A stretch of DNA of 64,000 nt. It comes from an uncultured Trueperaceae bacterium (GTDB lineage Bacteria > Deinococcota > Deinococci > Deinococcales > Trueperaceae). A model generated the notes under the pieces. The model had not been told where the DNA came from and ran no database searches. It was given only the letters and a program-made list of their open reading frames with translations. Shown piece by piece: positions 10,825 to 19,123 of the stretch; positions within the stretch are counted from its first letter, which is position 1, and each line of letters opens with the position of its first letter. The stretch spans positions 681,449 through 745,448 of the forward strand of contig CAVSGP010000009.1 in assembly GCA_963727505.1 (NCBI GenBank), given 5' to 3'. The position numbers and the translations under genes are program-made.

Positions 10825-13017
10825 TCAGGCCGTGCGCCTCCGTGTGCGGCGGGCGCGCTTCTGCTGCTGCATCTTGAACCACACCACCATGGGCGACAGG
10901 ATGAAGATGCTCGAGTAGGTGCCGAAGCCGATGCCGATGAGCAACGCGATGCTGAAGCCCCGGAGCACGCTGCCGCCGAACAGCAGCAGCGCGAGGACGG
11001 GCAGCAGCGTGGTGCCCGAGGTCGCCACGGTCCGCGACAGCGTCTGGTTCACGGCCAGGTCGACGACCTCGGCGTAGCTGCGGTCGCGCACCTTGCGGAG
11101 GTTCTCGCGGATGCGGTCGGCGATGATGATGGAGTCGTTGAGAGAATAGCCGACGACGAAGAGCACCGCGGCCAGCACCGGGATGCTGAAGGTCACGTTG
11201 AACAGGTCGAGCGCGCCCAGCACGATGCCGGCGTCGTGGATGGTGGCGATGATGGCGGCCACCGCCACGATCCAGTTGGGCCAGAAGCGCCACGCCACAT
11301 AGAGCAGGATCAGGCCAAGGGCGACGAGCACCGCCATGATGGCCGCCTGCCGCAGGTCCGCCCCGACGGCGGGGCCGACGTAATTGGCCTGCAGCAGCTG
11401 GCCGTTCAGCTTGGCGGTGAGATCGTTCGCGAACTGGTCGGCGCTCTGCTGACCGGTCTCGTTCAGGCCGACGCGGATCGACATGGGGTTGCCCTGCAGG
11501 GTGTTGTCGATCACCTTGACGACGGTGGCGTTCTTGCCGGTGATGCCGGGATAGTTCAGGTCGGTGATGGCCGAGCGCACGTCGGCAACGGTGGTCCCGT
11601 CGGGAACGTCGACGAGGACGTTGGTGCCGCCGGTGAAGTCGGTGGAGAGCTTCAGGCCTTCGATGGAGACGATGGCGATGGAGGCGATCGCGAGCAGCCC
11701 GGAGACGCTCATGATGACCGGCGCCTTGCTGACGAAGCGCACGCCCTCGACGAAGAAGCCCTTCCAGAGGTAGGTGCGCTTGCTCTTGCGGGCGGTGATG
11801 AGGTCGAGGATGAACGGCACCACCACGACGTTCACGAACACCGAGGCGATGATGCCGATGGCCAGGGTGATGGCGAAACCGCGTACCGGCCCGGTCGTGT
11901 ACTGGTAGAGCGCGGCGGCGGCCAGCAGCGTGGTGACGTTGGCGTCGATGATGGCCGACAGCGAGTTGCCGAAGCCGGTCTTCATCGCCAGGCGGATCGA
12001 CTTGCCCGCCCGCAGCTCCTCACGGATGCGCTCGAAGCTGATGACGTTGCCGTCGACCGCGGCGCCGATGGTGAGCACCAGGCCGGCCAGGCCCGGAAGC
12101 GTGAGCGCCGCATGGAGGGCGGCCAGGGTGCCGAAGATGAACAGCATGGCGAGCCCGAGGCCGAAGGTGAGGACGCCTCCGAAGACCAGGCCGTAATAGC
12201 CGATGACCGCCGCCACGACCGCAGCGCCGCCGATGAACGCGGCGATCTTGCCGGCGTTGATGCTGTCCTGACCGAGCGTCGGGCCGATGGAGCGGATCTC
12301 CTCGACGTGGAGGCTGATCGGGAGGCTCCCCGAGCGCAACACCAGCGAGATGTTGCTGGCTTCCTCCAGCGAGTTGATGCCGGTGATCTGCCCCGAGTCG
12401 GAGATGCGCGACTGTAGCGTGGGGGCCGTGATGATCTTTCCGTCCAGCACGATCGCCATGCGCCGCCCGACGTTACCGCCGGTGAAGTCGCCGAACTTGC
12501 CGGCGTCCTTGGCCTTGATGTTGAAGAACACGGCGGGCCCCATGGTCGAGCCGCCCACGCGTTGGAAGTCGGCGCGGGCGGTGCTGATGATCTCGCCCGT
12601 GAACGCGGGCTTCTCGAGGTCGTCGAGCGTCATCTGGGCGGTGGTCTTGTTCTGCGCCGACGGTTTGACGAGCTGGAAGTAGAGCTTGGCCTGCTGGCCG
12701 ATGAGTGAGAGGGCGCGCTTCTGGTCCGCCGCCGTCAGGCCGGGCAGCTCCACCACGATGCGGTTCTTGCCCGAGGTGGTGATGAGCGGCTCCGAGACGC
12801 CGAACTGGTTGACGCGGTTCTCGATGACGTTGCGGGCGGTCGCCAGGTCTTGCGTGGAGGGGTTGGCGGTGTTCGACTGCAGCACCACGCGCAGGCCGCC
12901 CTGCAGGTCGAGGCCGAGCTTGAGCGGGGCCGTCGCGCTCCAAGGTTGCCACAGGTACAAGATCGACGCGATGATCGCTGCCAGCACGACGGCGCCGGTG
13001 AAGGTCCTTCGGTTCAC
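10825..13017 (-). CDS. secDF: Fused protein translocase subunit SecDF
   Basis: LGLDLQGG, IENRVNQFGVSEP, IGAAVDGNVISFERIREE, DFTGG and GYSLNDSIIIADRIREN motifs; SD AGGAG before GTG. Confidence 0.96.
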   Translation of the reverse strand: MNRRTFTGAVVLAAIIASILYLWQPWSATAPLKLGLDLQGGLRVVLQSNTANPSTQDLATARNVIENRVNQFGVSEPLITTSGKNRIVVELPGLTAADQKRALSLIGQQAKLYFQLVKPSAQNKTTAQMTLDDLEKPAFTGEIISTARADFQRVGGSTMGPAVFFNIKAKDAGKFGDFTGGNVGRRMAIVLDGKIITAPTLQSRISDSGQITGINSLEEASNISLVLRSGSLPISLHVEEIRSIGPTLGQDSINAGKIAAFIGGAAVVAAVIGYYGLVFGGVLTFGLGLAMLFIFGTLAALHAALTLPGLAGLVLTIGAAVDGNVISFERIREELRAGKSIRLAMKTGFGNSLSAIIDANVTTLLAAAALYQYTTGPVRGFAITLAIGIIASVFVNVVVVPFILDLITARKSKRTYLWKGFFVEGVRFVSKAPVIMSVSGLLAIASIAIVSIEGLKLSTDFTGGTNVLVDVPDGTTVADVRSAITDLNYPGITGKNATVVKVIDNTLQGNPMSIRVGLNETGQQSADQFANDLTAKLNGQLLQANYVGPAVGADLRQAAIMAVLVALGLILLYVAWRFWPNWIVAVAAIIATIHDAGIVLGALDLFNVTFSIPVLAAVLFVVGYSLNDSIIIADRIRENLRKVRDRSYAEVVDLAVNQTLSRTVATSGTTLLPVLALLLFGGSVLRGFSIALLIGIGFGTYSSIFILSPMVVWFKMQQQKRARRTRRRTA

Positions 13018-13111
13018 GGGGGACTCCTAAGACGGGGTTTCGGGGGCTCGAAGGGGAGGGGCGCGGCGACGCATCGCTGCCGCGGCCCGCGGGGCACGGG
13101 GGATCCGGCCC

Positions 13112-13465
13112 TCATCCGCCTTCCAGCTGGAGCCGTCCGTACGCCGTCAACAGCGCCGTAGGGGCCGGTCCGGCGGTGTCACGACGCGCCGCGCGCAACG
13201 CCGCGTTCGGATCGGGGACCGGAAGCGCAGCGCGACCCGGCAGGACCGGCAGGCGCAGCGTTCCCGTGGCGCCACCGGGGGCGGTGAGACGGGCACCCGT
13301 CTCCAGCATGAGCGGGGCGCGGCTCCCCATCCCGGCACCGGCAGTCGACGGATCGTGTGCGGCCGCCGCCAGACGCTGGAGGGGGATGGCCGCCAGCGTC
13401 ACGGCGAGCGCCAGGCTCAATACGAGCCCGCGTCGGCGCCGGAGGGTCGTCAGGGCGGCCTGCAC
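13112..13465 (-). CDS. Secreted or membrane-targeted uORF of secDF, candidate translation-arrest (monitoring) peptide
   Basis: Leaderless: TAGAAT lies 7 nt before GTG. RRRR plus a hydrophobic signal/TM segment, then a low-complexity linker and C-terminus YGRLQLEGG-stop; 94 nt upstream of secDF on the same strand. Confidence 0.7.
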   Translation of the reverse strand: MQAALTTLRRRRGLVLSLALAVTLAAIPLQRLAAAAHDPSTAGAGMGSRAPLMLETGARLTAPGGATGTLRLPVLPGRAALPVPDPNAALRAARRDTAGPAPTALLTAYGRLQLEGG

Positions 13466-13533
13466 GCCCGCTATTCTAGCGCGCGTCGCTGGGCGAGGTA
13501 CCGGGCCCGCCGTGCGAGGCCAGGCCCCACGAG

Positions 13534-13571
13534 CGTCGCCCCGGGCGCATGCGGTTGCGCCCGGGGCGACG
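13534..13571 (-). terminator. Strong GC hairpin downstream of infB (no U-tract)
   Basis: Perfect 16-bp inverted repeat CGTCGCCCCGGGCGCA / TGCGCCCGGGGCGACG. Confidence 0.45.
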
Positions 13572-13610
13572 GCACCGGAAGGGTGGGTGGAGGCGGGTGG
13601 GGAGCCGAGC

Positions 13611-15431
13611 TCAGGCCGGCGTCACCTCGACCATCTCGTAGGCCACGATGACGTCCCCCTCCTGGACGTTGTCGTAGTTCTGCAGGTTGATGCCGCACTC
13701 GAAGCCGGAGGCCACCTCGCGCACGTCGTCCTTGAAGCGCCGCAGCTGCGCGACGGAGCCCTTGTAGACCTCCTTGCCACCACGCGTCAGGCGGGCCTTG
13801 GAGCCACGCCGGATCAGGCCGTCGGTGACGTAGGAGCCTGCGATGTTGCCGCTTCGGGGCACCCGGATGACGGCGCGCACCTCGGCGTGACCGATGACCC
13901 GCTCCTCGAATTCCGGCTCGATCTGGCCGCGGATCATGCGCTGCACGTCCTCGATGAGCTCGTAGATGATCTTGTAGCTCTTGATCGCGACCTTCTGCCG
14001 CTCGGCCGACTTCTTCACGCTACCGGGCGGATTCACGCCGAAGGTGATGACCGTGGCGTCGGCCGTGCTGGCCAGCAGCAGGTCGGACTCGGTGGGCGCG
14101 CCCACTTCGGCCAGCATGATCTCGAGCTCGACCTCGTCGGTGGCTTCCGCCTCCCGCGCGAGAACGCCCTTGATCGCCTCCAACGAACCCTGTGCATCCG
14201 CCCGCAGGACCAGGTTGATGACCTTCTTGGTGGGTTTGCCGAACAGGTCGGCGAGGGTCAGACCCTTGCGGCCGATGGACTCCAGCTCGGTTTCCTTGCG
14301 CTGGTCGCGCCGCTGGCCCGCGAGCTGCTTTGCCGTCTGTTCGTCCGCCGCCGCCTCCACCAGGTCCCCGGCGTTCGGCTGCTCGGAGAAGCCGAGGATC
14401 TGAACAGGGGCCGACGGCCCGGCCGCATCGACGATCGTGCCGGTGTGATCGGTGAGACGGCGGACCTTGGCCCACGCCTCGCCCGACACGATGTAGTCGG
14501 CGACGCGTAGGGTGCCTTCCTGCACCAGCACGGTCGCCAGCACACCTGCGCGCTTGTCGAGCACCGACTCGATCACGATCCCCTTGGCGGGCCCGTCCGA
14601 GGTCGCACGCAGCTCCTCGACTTCGGCAACCAGCGAGATCATCTCCAGCAGATCGTCGACGCCGTCGCCCGTCTTGGCGCTGATCTCGACCACGATGGTG
14701 TCCCCTCCGAAGTCTTCGGGGACGAGCTCGACCTGCATCAGGTCCCGCTTGACCTTCTCCGGGTCGGACTGGGGCAGGTCGCACTTGTTGATCGCCACGA
14801 TGATCGGCACCTTGGCGGCCTTGGCGTGGGCGATGGCCTCGCGCGACTGCGGCATGATGCTGTCGTCGGCAGCAACCACGATCACGGCGATGTCGGTGGC
14901 GTTGGTACCGCGCTGTCGAATGGACGTGAAGGCTTCGTGCCCCGGTGTGTCCAGGAAGGTCACCAGCCCGCCCTTGGTCTCGGCCTGATAGGCGCCGATG
15001 TGCTGGGTGATGCCCCCGGCTTCACCTTCGGCCACTTTGGTGTGCCGGATGTAGTCGAGCAGAGTGGTCTTGCCGTGGTCGACATGACCCATCACCGTCA
15101 CGACCGGCGCCCGCAGAGGAGCGTCGGCGGTCGCAGCCTTGGCCTCGTCGGCCTTCGGCTTGGGTTTGGGCTTCGTCGCCGTGGCCGTGGCGCCGCCGGA
15201 CGCGGGCTCTGCGGCCTTCGCCGGAGCCGCGGGCCGGTCGGCGGTCACGGGGGCGGGCTCGTCACCGTGGTCGCTCTCGACCAGTTGCCGCACCGTGTCC
15301 GCTACGTCGTGCTCGAGAGTGCTCGAGTGCGACTTGTATTCCACGCCCATCTCGTCGAGGATCGCCAGCATCTCCTTGGTCTCGATGCCGAGGTCCTTCG
15401 CCAGCTGATAGATCCGTACCTTATCGGACAT
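13611..15431 (-). CDS. infB: Translation initiation factor IF-2 (short form)
   Basis: [13 protein letters not shown]-domain; [24 protein letters not shown] and [18 protein letters not shown] motifs. Confidence 0.98.
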
Positions 15432-15747
15432 TCATGCCTCCGTCCCGATGCCTAGCTCGAGGAGTGCCGCCGGCCGTCTCGGAGGCCAGAGCCTCGGAGA
15501 CGGCTGCGAGCAGTGTGCGGACGTGCCCCGCCTGGCCTCGAAAGGCCTGCTTGAGGCGCTTCTCCGCAGGATCGCCGGCGCAGCGCCGGCACACCCAGGT
15601 GCCGCGCCCCCCGGCGCGGCCTTCCGGGTCGAGCGCGAACCGGCCGTCGACGTCCCGCACGAGGCGCACCAGCTCCGCCTTGGGCAGCGATGCGCGACAC
15701 ATCACGCAGCGCCTCAGGGGCACGTGTTTTCCGGTCGAGCCCGCCAT
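15421..15747 (-). CDS. ylxR: YlxR/RnpM family RNA-binding protein
   Basis: PLRRCVMCR...ELVRLV...GRGTWVC motif; sits between nusA and infB. Confidence 0.9.
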   Translation of the reverse strand: MAGSTGKHVPLRRCVMCRASLPKAELVRLVRDVDGRFALDPEGRAGGRGTWVCRRCAGDPAEKRLKQAFRGQAGHVRTLLAAVSEALASETAGGTPRARHRDGGMNVR

Positions 15748-15749
15748 GC

Positions 15750-17081
15750 CTAGGAGATCCGCTCCTCTTCCGTCGCTTCGTCGGCCTCGGGTTCGGAAGC
15801 CGTAGGCTCCGCGCCCCCGGCTTCGCCAGCGGCCGCGTCCGAGGTCTCGGCGTCGCCTTCCGTATCGGCGGAGGCGGCTTCGTCCTCGCCCGAAGCCGCG
15901 GCTTCGTCGCCGGACTCCGGGGCGGCCTCACTCGGCTCCGGATCGGGCGAGGCGCTGAACAACGCATCGAACGCCGCATGGCCGCGGTCGACGCCGCCAA
16001 CATCGTCCATGCGGGAGGCGGCAGCTTGCATGGCGGCATCCAGATCGCTGATCGACTCCGACGACACCAGATCGATCTTGAAGCCCGTGAGCTTGGCGGC
16101 CAGCCGCACGTTCTGGCCCCCCTTGCCGATCGCCAGCGAGAGTTGATCGCTGCCGACCGTAACGCGCGTCTGCTTCTCGTCGAGGTCGAGCTCGATCGTG
16201 CCGACCTTGGCGGGGGAGAGCGCGTTGCGGATGAACTCGCGCGCGTTGGGGTCCCACATGATGATATCGACGCGCTCGCGCTGCAGCTCCGCCGTGACGG
16301 CCTGGATGCGGCTCCCGCGGTGCCCGATACAGGCGCCGATGGGGTCGACGTTCGGATTGGTGCTGGTGACCGCCACCTTCGAGCGCTGTCCGGCCTCGCG
16401 CGCCACCGCCTTGATCTCGACCGTACCGTCGGCCACCTCGGGGATCTCCTGGCGCATCAGGTACTCGAGGAGCTGAGGTGCGGCACGGGACACCAGGATG
16501 CTGGGCCCGCGCGTGGAGAGCTCGACCTTCTCGACGTAGACCTTGACGCGCATCCCGACCATGTAGCGCTCGCCGTGGATCTGTTCGCGTGGCGGCATGA
16601 TGGCTTCCCCACGGCCGAGATCGACGAAGACGTTGCGCTTGTTGTCGGTGCGCGAGACCACGCCGGTGATGATGTCGCCGGCACGGTCCTTGTACTCCTC
16701 GAAGACGATGGCCCGCTCCGCTTCACGGATCTTCTGGGTGATGACCTGCTTGGTCGTCTGCACCGCGATGCGGGTGAACTTCTCGGGATCGGTGGGGAAC
16801 TCCATCTCCATCCCGACCTCGACGCTGTCGTCGAGGTCCAACCCCTCGGTCAGCGCGATCTCCTTGTCCTCGTCCTCCACCTCTTCGACCACACGGCGGA
16901 TGATCAGAACCTCCATCTCGCCGGAGTCGGGGTCCAAGCTGACCTCGATCTGCTTGCCCGGCATCACGTTGCGCTCGAAAGCCTGCTCGAGGGCCTCCTC
17001 GAGGCTCCCGAGCAACTGCTCCTTGTCCAGGTTCCGCTCCGCTGCAAGCATGTTCAGAGCGTCCACGAATTCCTTGTTCAT
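15750..17081 (-). CDS. nusA: Transcription termination/antitermination factor NusA
   Basis: KQVITQKIREAER, AREAGQRSKVAV, DPIGACIG and LSLAIGKGGQNVRLAAKLTG motifs; acidic C-terminal tail. Confidence 0.97.
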   Translation of the reverse strand: MNKEFVDALNMLAAERNLDKEQLLGSLEEALEQAFERNVMPGKQIEVSLDPDSGEMEVLIIRRVVEEVEDEDKEIALTEGLDLDDSVEVGMEMEFPTDPEKFTRIAVQTTKQVITQKIREAERAIVFEEYKDRAGDIITGVVSRTDNKRNVFVDLGRGEAIMPPREQIHGERYMVGMRVKVYVEKVELSTRGPSILVSRAAPQLLEYLMRQEIPEVADGTVEIKAVAREAGQRSKVAVTSTNPNVDPIGACIGHRGSRIQAVTAELQRERVDIIMWDPNAREFIRNALSPAKVGTIELDLDEKQTRVTVGSDQLSLAIGKGGQNVRLAAKLTGFKIDLVSSESISDLDAAMQAAASRMDDVGGVDRGHAAFDALFSASPDPEPSEAAPESGDEAAASGEDEAASADTEGDAETSDAAAGEAGGAEPTASEPEADEATEEERIS

Positions 17082-17154
17082 CCCTAACCACCTCTATTCG
17101 GTTGTGGGTCGCCACCCGTGAGCGCCGTGCGCGACGGCTCGGCGACGACCTGCC

Positions 17155-17598
17155 CTAGCGCGGCTCGTCCGGCCATTCGGCCAGACGAGCGATGTGGATG
17201 CCATCGAGGCGCACCTCCCGACGCTCGCCGTCGATCTCGAAGACGACGGACGCATCGGAGACCTCCCGAATCCGGCCGGTGAAGGTCTCGCCCTCGACCC
17301 GCACTTTCGCCAGCAGGTCGTGGAAGCGCTCGAAGTGGCGCGCCCTCCGGAGCGGACGCTTGGGTCCCGGCGACTCGACGTCGAACCGGTAGGGACCGTC
17401 GAACGGATCGAGGCGGTCGAGCTCCAGCCCGAACACCTCCGCCGCCTTGGCGACGTCGTCGACGGTGACCCCCTGCTCGTCGAGGCGATCGATGCGCAGC
17501 AGCACCCGCCGTTCGCGGCCGGTTCCGCTGACCTTGCACTCCAGGACCTCGAACCCGAGTGGCGCCAGCACCTCTTCTGCCGCTTGCGCCAGTTCCAT
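17155..17598 (-). CDS. rimP: Ribosome maturation factor RimP
   Basis: ATG 17598 after SD GGAGG; LRIDR...VTVDD...YRFDVESPGPKRPL; first gene of rimP-nusA-ylxR-infB. Confidence 0.93.
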   Translation of the reverse strand: MELAQAAEEVLAPLGFEVLECKVSGTGRERRVLLRIDRLDEQGVTVDDVAKAAEVFGLELDRLDPFDGPYRFDVESPGPKRPLRRARHFERFHDLLAKVRVEGETFTGRIREVSDASVVFEIDGERREVRLDGIHIARLAEWPDEPR

Positions 17599-17618
17599 GC
17601 ATCCTCCTGCCACCGTCC

Positions 17619-17652
17619 CAACAAAACCGGGTGGGCCCAGCGAACCCACCCG
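17619..17652 (-). promoter_or_regulatory. rimP leader attenuator (premature intrinsic terminator)
   Basis: Minus strand CGGGTGGG-TTCGCTGGG-CCCACCCG followed by GTTTTGTT, between the promoter and the rimP SD. Confidence 0.7.
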
Positions 17653-17681
17653 AGCAAACGCCGGGACGTTGTCCGGGCCGG

Positions 17682-17711
17682 AGTATACCCCGCCCGGCAC
17701 CCCCACTTCAA
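17682..17711 (-). promoter_or_regulatory. Sigma70-type promoter of the rimP operon
   Basis: TTGAAG-N18-TATACT on the minus strand. Confidence 0.6.
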
Positions 17712-17766
17712 CCGGCGCCGAACGGGCGGAAGCGGCTGCCGGACGTTGGTCTGTGAAGCGCTCGAC

Positions 17767-17795
17767 TTTACAGTCGGGCAAGCCTCCTGTACACT
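17767..17795 (+). promoter_or_regulatory. Sigma70-type promoter for the aminotransferase leader
   Basis: TTTACA-N17-TACACT. Confidence 0.7.
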
Positions 17796-17803
17796 CGCCC
17801 ACG

Positions 17804-17833
17804 ATGCGGACGGTACCCGCGCGAGCTTCCTGA
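17804..17833 (+). CDS. Putative leaderless leader peptide MRTVPARAS
   Basis: ATG 8 nt after the -10 box; followed by two hairpins, the second terminator-like (17878-17919). Confidence 0.45.
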   Translation: MRTVPARAS

Positions 17834-17962
17834 CGGCGACGATCGCCGGCCCTTCGCGGCCGGGGGGCGTCGCATGTACGAGACCCGCCAAGGCATGGTG
17901 AGGTCTCGTTCCTTGTGTTAGGGCAGGGAAGAGGAGCCGCCGCACCGCGTTGGAGGAGTGCC

Positions 17963-19123
17963 ATGATGCCGAACGACGACGTACTGCTGCTCACCCCCGG
18001 GCCCACCCCGATCCATCCGCGGGCCCAGGCCGCGTTGAGCTGGCCGATGCGGGGCCACATGGATCCCGAGGTCTTCGCCTACAACGATCGCATCGTGGCC
18101 GACCTTCGGCGTCTGTACGGCACCGCGCCCGGCGCGTTCACCAGCCTGCTGTCGGGGACCGGGTCGCTGGGCATGGAGGCGGGGCTCGCCAACCTGCTCG
18201 AGCCCGGCGAGCGCGTGCTCGTCCTGTCCAACGGCGCCTTCGGCGAACGCATGATCGACATGGCGGCGCGTCTGTCGCTCGATGTACACGCCCTGCGCAC
18301 GGAGCCCGGCACCCCCGTCGACGTGGAAGAGGCGGCGCGGGCGGCCCATGCGCTGCACCCGGCGCTCATCGCCGTCGTCCACGGCGAGACCAGTACCGGC
18401 GTACTCAACCCCGTGCCCGAGCTCGGCGCCGTGGCGCGCGACGCCGGCGCGCTGTTCAGCGTCGACGCCGTGACGACCGTTGGCATGATGCCGTTCGCCA
18501 TGCAGGCGTGGGGGATCGACTACGCCTACACCGGTTCCCAGAAGTGCCTGTCGGCTCCTCCCGGAGTGGCGCCGGTTGCCTTCTCCGAGCGCGCCATGGA
18601 GCGCGTGGAGCGCCGCAGCGTCCCGGTTGCGACCTGGTATGCCGACGCCGTCGGCATGCGTCGCTACTGGGAGCCCGGCGAGTCCGGGCGTCAGTACCAC
18701 CACACGGTCCCCGTCCAGCTCCACTGGGCTCTGGGGGAGGCCCTGTCGGCGGCTCTGGAAGAGGGCCTCGAGGTCCGCGCGGAGCGGGCCCGCCGGGTGG
18801 GCGAGGCTGCGCTGTCCGCGCTCGCGAGCGTCGGTTTCGAAGCATACGTTCCGGTCCGCCACCGTCTTCCCACGGTGCTGGCGGTCGTGCCGCCGGCAGG
18901 CATCGATGAGGCCGCGGTGCGCGCCACGCTGCGCCGGGACCACGGCGTCACGGTTGCCGGTGGTCTGGGGCCGACGGCAGGTCGGGTGTGGCGGCTGGGC
19001 CTCATGGGGGAGAACGCGCGCGACGAACACTACGAGCGCTTCTTCGGCGCCCTGGAAGCGGTGCTGGACGAACGCGGTCTGGCGGAGCGCTTCCGCGGAG
19101 CCCGGCAGCTCGCCGCCGCCTGA
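17963..19123 (+). CDS. Class V PLP aminotransferase (alanine-glyoxylate / serine-pyruvate family)
   Basis: [28 protein letters not shown] and [12 protein letters not shown] (PLP Lys) motifs; SD GGAGG. Confidence 0.92.

Follow-up and report, generated by a model that had tools for sequence, protein, structure and literature searches.

What is encoded by the short open reading frame that precedes secDF in an uncultured member of the Trueperaceae, and could it bear on the expression of its neighbor? We pursued these questions in a 64,000-nucleotide stretch of the genome (hereafter, the window), where a frame of 117 amino acids (the uORF) was located on the minus strand, 94 nt 5′ of secDF. An earlier note had described its layout, namely an N-terminus with RRRR and a hydrophobic segment, an Ala/Pro/Gly linker and a tail directly before TGA, and had interpreted the whole as an arrest peptide. 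The layout was present as described, and the interpretation was partly supported by the analyses below. Specifically, we place at slightly better than even the prospect that the uORF is a real and ancient secDF leader gene across the Deinococcales, one whose product is most likely an arrest peptide that monitors Sec. It would probably represent a new, order-wide motif class of such peptides, in which stalling is predicted from sequence. The features of the region are collected in Table 1.

Table 1. Features of the secDF leader region, with positions in the window.
Feature	Position	Strand	Basis
infB (IF-2), upstream neighbor	13611..15431	-	Pfam
-10-like box TAGAAT, probable leaderless promoter	13473..13478	-	read in sequence
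uORF, candidate secDF leader / arrest peptide, 117 aa plus TGA (13112-13114)	13112..13465	-	ORF list, 11 homologues
RRRR (residues 9-12) and hydrophobic segment (residues 13-29), predicted N-in signal or signal-anchor	13379..13441	-	hydropathy, AlphaFold2
Mid block, conserved (DPSTAGAGMGSRAPLMLETGAR, residues 38-59), ending and starting 58-79 residues before the C-terminus	13289..13354	-	alignments, pN/pS
Variable Ala/Pro/Gly-rich linker, residues 60-104	13154..13288	-	pN/pS, pLDDT
C-terminal motif LLTAYGRLQLEGG, residues 105-117, directly 5′ of the stop	13115..13153	-	93 tails
uORF-secDF spacer, 94 nt, C-rich, with GCCCCTCCCCTTC (13050-13062) and SD AGGAG (13024-13028)	13018..13111	-	composition
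secDF, fused, 730 aa, presumed regulated gene; GTG start at 13017	10825..13017	-	Pfam

GC-rich genomes are rich in long spurious ORFs, and several overlapped this region on both strands, such that the uORF might be a chance open frame with a coincidental motif. This was extremely improbable and could be ruled out, given that the window uORF had 11 homologues (E 1.7e-51 to 3.7e-17), that the motif was kept at local GC from 0.31 to 0.77, that pN/pS fell well below 1 in two blocks, and that the GG-stop ending was present in 93 of 93 uORFs. The product matched no Pfam family at E<=1, and searches of Rfam returned no match at E<=1 within 12800-13750.

The uORF was widely distributed in the order. 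Among the 105 Trueperaceae secDF loci inspected, 77 had a uORF ending in [E/D]GG-stop, located 55-292 nt 5′ of secDF. In the Deinococcus-like family (f2) and the Thermus-like families (f4 and f5), a uORF preceded secDF at all 16 sampled loci, ending in [E/D]GG-stop in 15 and in GGG-stop in one. These 77 and 16 sequences together form the set of 93 uORFs used here. Profile searches recovered part of this set: the first profile (A1, 12 sequences) gave hits in 23 of the 128 family genomes, one of which was spurious, and the second (A2) in 54 of 363 genomes, while the remaining uORFs were seen only by direct inspection 5′ of secDF. Across families, the Trueperaceae profile detected 14 of the 16 uORFs from elsewhere in the order at E<=0.0021. 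The comparative test set beforehand thus came out positive, in that linkage to secDF was conserved across the order, as was a C-terminal motif placed exactly at the stop. Likewise, the R.Q.(D/E)GG-stop ends that the earlier note ascribed to Deinococcota proved to be real, and the tail recurred in 93 orthologous loci.

The secDF gene itself was assigned with multiple Pfam domains (SecD_SecF_C, 5e-70; SecDF_P1_head, 2.3e-26; SecD_1st; Sec_GG), and one sampled genome encoded a SecDF near-identical to the crystallized SecDF in PDB 3AQP, which we take to be that of Thermus thermophilus. The gene order infB-uORF-secDF was kept in the Trueperaceae and in families f4 and f5, where infB C-termini were located 5′ of the uORF. 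In the upstream DNA fetched for five Deinococcus-like loci, the infB C-terminus was absent and the uORF was kept in all five; the uORF is therefore linked to secDF and not to infB. Of the 28 Trueperaceae loci without an [E/D]GG-stop uORF, 13 had infB abutting secDF, which argues that the uORF is dispensable.

A leaderless promoter of its own, as also proposed, is probable for the uORF. The box TAGAAT (13478-13473, minus strand) is followed by a 7-nt gap and the GTG start (13465-13463), and in 14 of 20 related loci GTG was preceded, at a distance of exactly 7 nt, by a box of the form TA[N3]T. Close relatives have an ATG that overlaps the -10 box; since the same triplet is ATA in the window uORF, GTG is the likelier start. 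A TANNNT motif adjoining an ORF is a documented pattern in the phylum, according to the available parts of PMC12340547 and PMC4007540, and the leaderless reading fits both the conserved box and these published habits. A sigma-70/terminator scan of 12900-13700 returned nothing on the minus strand, a scan that is blind to the TAGAAT box because it requires a -35 box and a T-run. No TANNNT motif that could supply secDF with a promoter of its own was found in the 94-nt spacer, in the window and the 10 nearest loci. In genus g24, the uORF start overlapped the infB stop codon (TGATG / GTGA), suggesting that translation may be coupled along the operon there.

The C-terminal motif was fixed in position relative to the stop. 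In the window, TGA (13114-13112) immediately follows the motif, and in all 93 uORFs the stop codon came directly after GG, without extension. Tail positions counted back from the stop had G(-1) and G(-2) in all 93 sequences, E/D(-3) in 92, L(-4) in 78, Q(-5) in 54, R(-7) in 68, G(-8) in 55 and L(-12) in 59. These tails employed each of the four codons for Gly and the six for Leu, and because synonymous codons vary freely, selection acts on the peptide and not on the RNA. All three stop codons were likewise employed (64 TGA, 17 TAA and 12 TAG), indicating that the constraint is not tied to one release factor; an RF2-specific stall at UGA was ruled out by this distribution. AlphaFold2 placed a helix at residues 102-114. 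C-terminal Gly has the slowest peptide release, according to the portion of PMC10802582 available. Three loci ended in RLQL-, RWQL- or QWRL-stop, without EGG, and they render it uncertain in which register to the stop codon an arrest would occur. With respect to known arrest motifs, the tail GRLQLEGG had no RAPP-like or RQH motif (R/Q/H-A/G-P-P/G), the family of ApdA, ApdP, ApcA and the RAGP of SecM, and no Pro in its last 12 residues, and its [E/D]-G-G end matched neither N-A-P-stop nor D-G-M-K-stop.

Upstream of the tail, the uORF is divided into a signal segment, a mid block and a linker. The hydrophobic stretch, GLVLSLALAVTLAAIPL, had a mean Kyte-Doolittle value of 2.32 over 17 residues and is followed by AAAAHD, an AxA-like site. 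AlphaFold2 modeled a helix at residues 2-26 (block pLDDT 83-96). A 17-residue span with mean Kyte-Doolittle >=1.42 occurred near the N-terminus of all 93 uORFs, and in 90 of them the distance from the end of this segment to the C-terminus was 75-101 residues. The earlier note had proposed testing whether conservation is confined to the signal segment and some 10 residues at the end. Both were indeed conserved and the linker was near neutral, but there was also a third block, at residues 38-59, with the consensus GAGMG.R.PLMLE.GAR. Here, D38, P39, G43-G47, R49, P51, M53-E55 and R59 were invariant in alignment A1, and M46 and R59 were at least 90% conserved in alignment A2. Among eight ungapped genus members, pN/pS was 0.23 for the mid block, 0.29 for the tail and 0.84 for the linker. 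Moreover, with the last 12 residues trimmed, 6 of the 16 uORFs from the other families still matched the Trueperaceae profile, at 12-21 bits (best of 80 shuffles, 6.7). The linker, in which 24 of 45 residues are Ala, Pro or Gly, drifted in sequence and kept its length; pLDDT was below 50 at residues 57-71, and no globular fold was predicted for the uORF product by AlphaFold2 (pTM 0.30).

A conserved block lying outside the stretch held by the ribosome tunnel would also suit an accessory protein of Sec or SecDF that is small and either exported or anchored in the membrane, one in which the mid block and RLQLEGG serve as binding motifs and no stalling takes place. In Escherichia coli, yajC is located upstream of secD-secF, and the uORF matches this small, single-TM gene in size and position. 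YajC (PF02699) was above cut-off in none of the 121 genomes sampled across the order, as compared with 7 of 14 controls (T. thermophilus and D. radiodurans not being among the controls), such that the uORF product could be a replacement for it. Identity with YajC itself was rejected, as the uORF lacked a Pfam match at E<=1 and the best PF02699 scores in the genome (13.6 and 11.9 bits, cut-off 28.2) came from elsewhere. RRRR before the hydrophobic segment predicts an N-in/C-out orientation, which is opposite to that of YajC; additionally, the lack of a folded domain and the almost neutral linker are at odds with an accessory protein, as is the loss of the uORF at 28 of 105 Trueperaceae loci at which secDF stays. 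A motif pinned to the last residue in 93 of 93 sequences is unusual for binding and typical of arrest peptides. The lack of an RNA switch, described next, is in keeping with an accessory role, and we consider that role unlikely overall.

Spacer RNA offered a second route to the question of how the uORF might influence secDF. The spacer had been described as C-rich, and so it was, with 49% C and 30% G in the window and C exceeding G in 70 of the 77 Trueperaceae spacers; of 313 co-directional spacers that crude gene calls gave for this genome, 3.2% reached its C-over-G skew of 0.24. Pairing of its C-tract with the uORF end or with the SD, also proposed, was not supported. Although the minimum free energy fold of 12998-13150 (z = -1.47) brought the C-tract into pairing with the 3′ end of the uORF, RNAalifold found no conserved spacer structure among 11 close loci (-3.7 kcal/mol, 0 covarying pairs). 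When a ribosome was modeled on the uORF stop, the mean unpaired probability of the SD/start moved from 0.47 to 0.49 over 77 loci (thermodynamic prediction), rising by more than 0.1 in 13 and falling by more than 0.1 in six, that is, without consistent unmasking of the SD. A SecM-type SD-unmasking switch was rejected as the conserved mechanism on these grounds.

An output through Rho is conceivable. In TnaC-tnaA, Rho is blocked by a ribosome that stalls on the stop codon, and TnaC senses tryptophan. Shared with that system are a possible stop-codon stall, a C-rich and G-poor downstream spacer, and the presence of Rho (PF07497, 88.6 bits), so that in the Trueperaceae and the Deinococcus-like family the spacer allows, by analogy, a TnaC-like Rho block. 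The two differ in that the C-rich part of the spacer is at least 40 nt from the stop: the tract lies at -40 to -11 from secDF and not beside the uORF stop, after which the first 10 nt have 37% G and 32% C. Moreover, the skew was absent from most Thermus-like loci; of the five Deinococcus-like loci, four had a C-rich spacer.

The same spacer features would be expected of a constitutive expression element, in which slow release at GG-stop keeps ribosomes on the mRNA and thereby shields the spacer from Rho or RNases, or feeds ribosomes to the secDF SD, without sensing export. The C-rich spacers, with a skew in the top 3.2% of the genome, the Rho gene, the coupled translation suggested by the g24 overlap and the strong Shine-Dalgarno sequence 5′ of secDF at 77 of 77 loci are all compatible with such an element. 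Left unexplained are the signal or TM segment in 93 of 93 uORFs, its 75-101-residue distance from the end in 90, and the conserved mid block, and the skew is missing from most Thermus-like loci despite the peptide motif being kept. We regard a constitutive element as quite improbable.

The Sec-monitoring arrest peptide accords with the traits of known Sec/YidC monitoring substrates such as SecM, VemP, MifM, ApdA/ApdP and the uDF_* classes, in that the uORF is upstream of and co-oriented with secDF and has an N-terminal hydrophobic segment, a poorly conserved linker and a C-terminal motif. In the parts of PMC10987492 available, the N-A/S-P-stop peptides are likewise encoded by small ORFs directly upstream of secDF (or secA), with an N-terminal localization signal and a conserved motif that forms the extreme C-terminus followed by the stop, and toeprints place the stop codon in the A-site. 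These peptides end in Pro, while the window tail ends in [E/D]-G-G-stop with conserved R(-7) and L(-4); they come from a different phylum and are unrelated in sequence, and for the window uORF arrest is a prediction. [quoted passage not shown] The uDF_DGMK-stop and LudP (DGEK) peptides of Clostridia, as portrayed in the available text of PMC10987492 and bioRxiv 10.64898/2026.10.26.761930, share the position upstream of secDF, an acidic residue followed by Gly near the C-terminus and a possible arrest at termination. The LudP nascent chain forms a helix in the tunnel, according to the same text, and a C-terminal helix is predicted for the window uORF. In contrast, register and residues differ (D-G-M/E-K versus L-E/D-G-G), there is no homology, and LudP is described there as arresting mainly in elongation.

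VemP of Vibrio, as presented in the available portions of PMC7793623 and PMC5449182, is likewise a secreted leader upstream of secD/F and monitors late translocation. Its Arg-85, approximately 71 residues before the arrest site, is a translocon-contacting brake that sets dependence on PpiD and SecDF (PMC7793623, same portion), a position matched by the window mid block, which has a near-invariant Arg 58-79 residues from the end. VemP differs in arresting elongation through a long compacted motif and in regulating a second secDF copy through an SD-sequestering stem, on the same portions, and no such stem was conserved here. SecM-secA of E. coli, as covered by the available text of bioRxiv 10.64898/2026.10.26.761930, has in common with the uORF a signal peptide, a linker and an arrest motif at the C-terminus, located upstream of a Sec gene; the uORF has neither RAGP nor another RAPP-like motif, and the downstream gene and regulatory RNA differ.

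From these elements we envisage the following mechanism for the putative arrest peptide. Translation would begin at the GTG of a leaderless mRNA, and the N-in signal, with its RRRR and hydrophobic segment, would bring the ribosome-nascent chain complex to SecYEG. With the ribosome on the final codons, the exit tunnel and peptidyl-transferase center would be occupied by the tail L-x-x-[L/Y/F]-G-R-L-Q-L-[E/D]-G-G, which would slow or block either the release of the peptide at the stop or the elongation steps across the final four codons. At the stall, the mid block, 58-79 residues back, would be located in or just past the translocon, and by analogy with VemP Arg-85 it may tune the pulling force needed for stall release, with the export machinery that pulls being possibly SecDF itself. 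When export is poor, the ribosome would stay at the uORF end and secDF expression would go up. In its full form, our proposal is of an ancient, order-wide monitor that probably predates the split between the Thermus-like, Deinococcus-like and Truepera lineages, that combines a new G-R-L-Q-L-[E/D]-G-G-stop arrest, at or within four codons of termination, with a brake or handle block reporting SecDF-type pulling, and whose output may be Rho-dependent in the Trueperaceae and the Deinococcus-like family; we advance it tentatively, with somewhat less than even confidence.

Few export-monitoring arrest peptides are known; they are restricted to particular lineages and differ in mechanism, and with each new motif has come another way to jam the peptidyl-transferase center. 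Our literature search returned no description of a uORF of this kind from Deinococcus, Thermus or Truepera, with the secDF table and supplementary figures of Fujiwara 2024 lying outside its scope and potentially bearing on novelty. Neither 'Deinococc' nor 'Thermus' occurs in the main text of PMC10987492 or of PMC7897499. In the portions of the Fujiwara 2024 supplements that were available, Deinococcota genomes had been screened and the secA and yidC tables had no 'Deinococ' or 'Truepera' rows. The motif is thus absent from published screens within this literature scope and the parts of the sources that it covers.

How a stall would be turned into secDF expression becomes a question of its own, given the lack of a conserved SD hairpin. 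The Gly-Gly-stop ending is an intrinsically slow release context, and the mid block lends itself to probing the VemP 'Arg-85 brake' idea in a peptide unrelated to VemP. Some of the genomes with the uORF encode SecDF close to two crystallized SecDF proteins, such that stalling, its force release by SecDF and structure should be directly testable with existing materials. Finally, conservation spans a whole deep-branching order, not a genus or class, and, if the arrest-peptide reading is true, the uORF would supply an arrest peptide native to the ribosome on which structural studies draw most.

Reading of the minus strand, together with the ORF list, recovered all of the elements that the earlier note had named, at the positions it gave, with a 117-aa ORF (the uORF) between infB and a fused secDF. 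Both secDF and its leader lie at the end of a translation-factor operon in this lineage. The uORF had no Pfam match, even at E<=1. The centroid fold of 13480-13612 (z = -2.57) retained the hairpin upstream of it. This hairpin may terminate the infB transcript or insulate it, which would fit a separate promoter for the uORF.

Features of the secDF leader region in the window and of the encoded peptide
Feature	Position	Strand	Basis or remark
rimP, nusA, ylxR, infB	13611-18060	-	Pfam; directly upstream, same strand
infB	ends 13611	-	ORF list and direct reading 13660->12950; Pfam IF-2
Perfect 16-bp GC-rich hairpin, 6-nt loop, without U-tract	13535-13570	-	between infB stop codon and uORF -10 box
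TAGAAT box	13478-13473	-	7 nt, then GTG at 13465
117-aa uORF, ending LLTAYGRLQLEGG-TGA	stop 13114-13112	-	ORF list and direct reading
Mid block core, GAGMG.R.PLMLE.GAR	residues 43-59		inside annotated block 38-59, just after signal
uORF-secDF spacer, 94 nt	AGGAG at 13028-13024	-	direct reading
Fused secDF	gene 10825-13017, GTG at 13017	-	ORF list; Pfam SecDF

Searches returned 11 homologues of the uORF (E 1.7e-51 to 3.7e-17, 49-90% identity), all those named being hypothetical proteins. Among eight ungapped genus members, pN/pS was 0.58 for the N-terminus and TM segment, 0.23 for residues 34-63 (the mid block), 0.84 for the linker (residues 64-104), and 0.29 for the last 13 residues. A chance ORF is excluded by the strength of the homologue matches, the low pN/pS in two blocks, and the GG-stop ending of 93/93 tails.

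Profile searches under-detected the family (23/128 family genomes with a first profile of 12 sequences, 54/363 order genomes with a later one), and we therefore read the DNA upstream of secDF directly, having located the gene in 349/363 order genomes; none of the conclusions depends on the unpublished genome G090. The earlier note had staked its reading on a shared C-terminal motif and synteny in relatives, and both were found. Of 105 Trueperaceae loci inspected, 77 had a uORF ending in [E/D]GG-stop, a motif retained at GC contents from 0.31 to 0.77; three had a homologous uORF ending in RLQL-, RWQL- or QWRL-stop, without EGG (L107, L118, L119), and one ended in GGG-stop. No uORF was present at 13 loci where infB abuts secDF (<=11 nt or overlapping; L084, L096, L097, L100, L103, L105, L106, L108, L110, L111, L116, L117, L124) or at five where infB lies 63-175 nt upstream, and six had unrecognisable content or too little sequence. 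Some Trueperaceae genera apparently lost the leader or never had it.

Outside Trueperaceae, we sampled 20 loci from other families of the order (f2-f5), picked for assembly quality or hit rank rather than for the feature. The uORF was present in 5/5 f2 loci (four [E/D]GG, one GGG), 5/5 f4 loci, and 6/6 f5 loci, and in 0/4 f3 loci (L151-L154). Those f3 loci had low-GC DNA upstream of secDF, and f3 SecDF carries a long basic N-terminal extension (e.g., ...NNRNKKNLPQESFW...) ahead of the first TM segment. The SecDF of one f5 genome matched PDB 3aqp_A (1403 bits over 730 residues) and that of one f2 genome 5xam_A (1304 bits), which we take to be the Thermus thermophilus and Deinococcus radiodurans structures, respectively, making f5 Thermus-like and f2 Deinococcus-like. 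The Trueperaceae profile matched 14/16 non-Trueperaceae uORFs at E<=0.0021 and, with the last 12 residues removed, still matched 6/16 at 12-21 bits (best of 80 shuffles, 6.7 bits), which argues that the uORFs are one homologous family. These comparisons place its origin before the split of Trueperaceae, f2, f4, and f5.

All 93 peptides (77 Trueperaceae, 16 other) had a hydrophobic N-terminal segment, preceded by RRRR in the window. The segment ended 79-101 residues from the C-terminus in 74/77 Trueperaceae uORFs and 75-83 residues from it in all 16 others, and the linker kept its length while varying in sequence. By-eye comparison identified blocks resembling the mid block in f5 (GAGFLAHAPTLALKEDR) and f4. 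The stop codon followed the tail immediately in every case (TGA 64, TAA 17, TAG 12), and all four Gly and six Leu codons were used in tails, indicating a constraint on the peptide and not the RNA, nor on one release factor. GGG-stop variants were seen in L122 and L136 (RFGGG, RQLGGG).

Residues at C-terminal tail positions, counted from the stop codon (93 tails)
Position	Residues
-12	L 59
-9	L 43, Y 18, F 17
-8	G 55
-7	R 68
-6	L 53, R 25, W 10
-5	Q 54, L 20
-4	L 78
-3	E 55, D 37, G 1
-2	G 93
-1	G 93

Like SecM, VemP, and MifM, the uORF combines a signal, a ruler-like linker, and a tail upstream of a translocon gene, and its tail is invariant and pinned to the stop codon. According to the LudP preprint (bioRxiv 10.64898/2026.10.26.761930), the layout of signal, linker, and C-terminal motif led to these three and to about twenty newer arrest peptides. 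By analogy, the uORF most likely works as a Sec-monitoring arrest peptide. Were it instead an exported accessory protein, the main rival and an unlikely one, it might stand in the place of YajC, whose size and position it matches and whose domain (PF02699) was above cut-off in 0/121 sampled genomes of the order and below it in the window's own genome (it was detected in 7/14 control genomes, neither T. thermophilus nor D. radiodurans being one of the seven); yet the uORF itself does not match PF02699, its predicted orientation is N-in, its linker is near-neutral, its motif never runs beyond GG, and the gene was repeatedly lost. Nor was a fold predicted: AlphaFold2 (66 sequences; pLDDT 68, pTM 0.30) gave a confident N-terminal helix and a C-terminal helix (102-114), without globular fold.

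For an arrest peptide, the stall would fall at the uORF end, at the stop codon or within the last four codons. Termination-arrest peptides upstream of secDF are already reported in a 2024 screen, where toeprints put the stop codon of uDF_NAP-stop in the A-site and uDF_DGMK-stop requires its stop codon for arrest (PMC10987492). C-terminal Gly was the slowest residue in a eukaryotic peptide-release assay, which correlated with bacterial RF1/RF2 data at r = 0.94-0.98 (PMC10802582). The three natural RLQL-type stop variants call for caution on register: the arrest might start at Leu(-4) or occur at several sites. Arg-85 of VemP, which is conserved and sits some 71 residues ahead of the arrest point in a SecYEG-contacting stretch, reportedly retards translocation and makes arrest release PpiD- and SecD/F-dependent (PMC7793623). 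The mid block lies 58-79 residues from the uORF end and, given the placement and role of Arg-85, may be a translocon-contact element that tunes stall release.

The leaderless promoter proposed earlier has support in relatives, 14/20 related loci having TA[N3]T exactly 7 nt 5' of GTG, and in the phylum, for which published work describes leaderless mRNAs whose ORF directly adjoins a -10 motif (PMC4007540; PMC12340547). In close relatives (L001, L003-L010), the box runs into an ATG (TAGAATG...), which public gene calls take as the start, giving 120 aa. The window has ATA at this triplet (13472-13474, minus strand), making the GTG 9 nt further downstream the likelier, leaderless start. In genus g24 (L013, L015, L017, L018), the uORF start shares nucleotides with the infB stop (TGATG or GTGA), pointing to translational coupling to infB rather than leaderless initiation, and in one Thermus-like genome it lies 8 nt past the infB stop.

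No -10 motif was seen in the spacer, either in the window or at the 10 loci closest to it, which speaks against the separate secDF promoter that the earlier note considered; transcription of secDF at these loci probably runs through the uORF. The proposed C-tract pairing switch fared less well. The uORF end paired with GCCCCTCCCCTTC in the minimum-energy fold of 12998-13150, but with z = -1.47, and neither a consensus structure nor compensatory pairs were found among eleven close loci. Forcing a 30-nt footprint on the stop codon at 77 loci, as a model of the stalled ribosome, moved mean Shine-Dalgarno/start accessibility from 0.47 to 0.49 (up >0.1 in 13/77, down >0.1 in 6/77), which speaks against the site being consistently freed by a stall. 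What Trueperaceae spacers do share is their composition: C exceeded G in 70/77 (mean 0.39 vs 0.24), unlike the balanced uORF coding region. In the window's own genome, only 3.2% of 313 co-directional spacers (crude gene calls) reached the skew of the window's spacer. Rho is encoded in this genome, so the output step could be a TnaC-like obstruction of Rho loading; the C-rich stretch lies at -40 to -11 from secDF, not adjoining the stop codon, and most f4/f5 loci lack the skew, both of which argue against this route. A leader that constitutively holds ribosomes would account for the spacer but not for signal, ruler, or mid block, and we regard it as improbable.

We found no publication on this peptide, with some doubt as regards the secDF table of the 2024 screen. 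The main texts of the 2021 and 2024 screens (PMC7897499; PMC10987492) do not mention Deinococcus or Thermus, and the 2024 genome list includes Deinococcota, with no rows for the phylum in its secA and yidC result tables (PMC10987492). Sec-monitoring leaders are a known kind; new here, with the same reservation, are the missing Shine-Dalgarno hairpin, the motif, the second conserved block, and the breadth of the family across the order.
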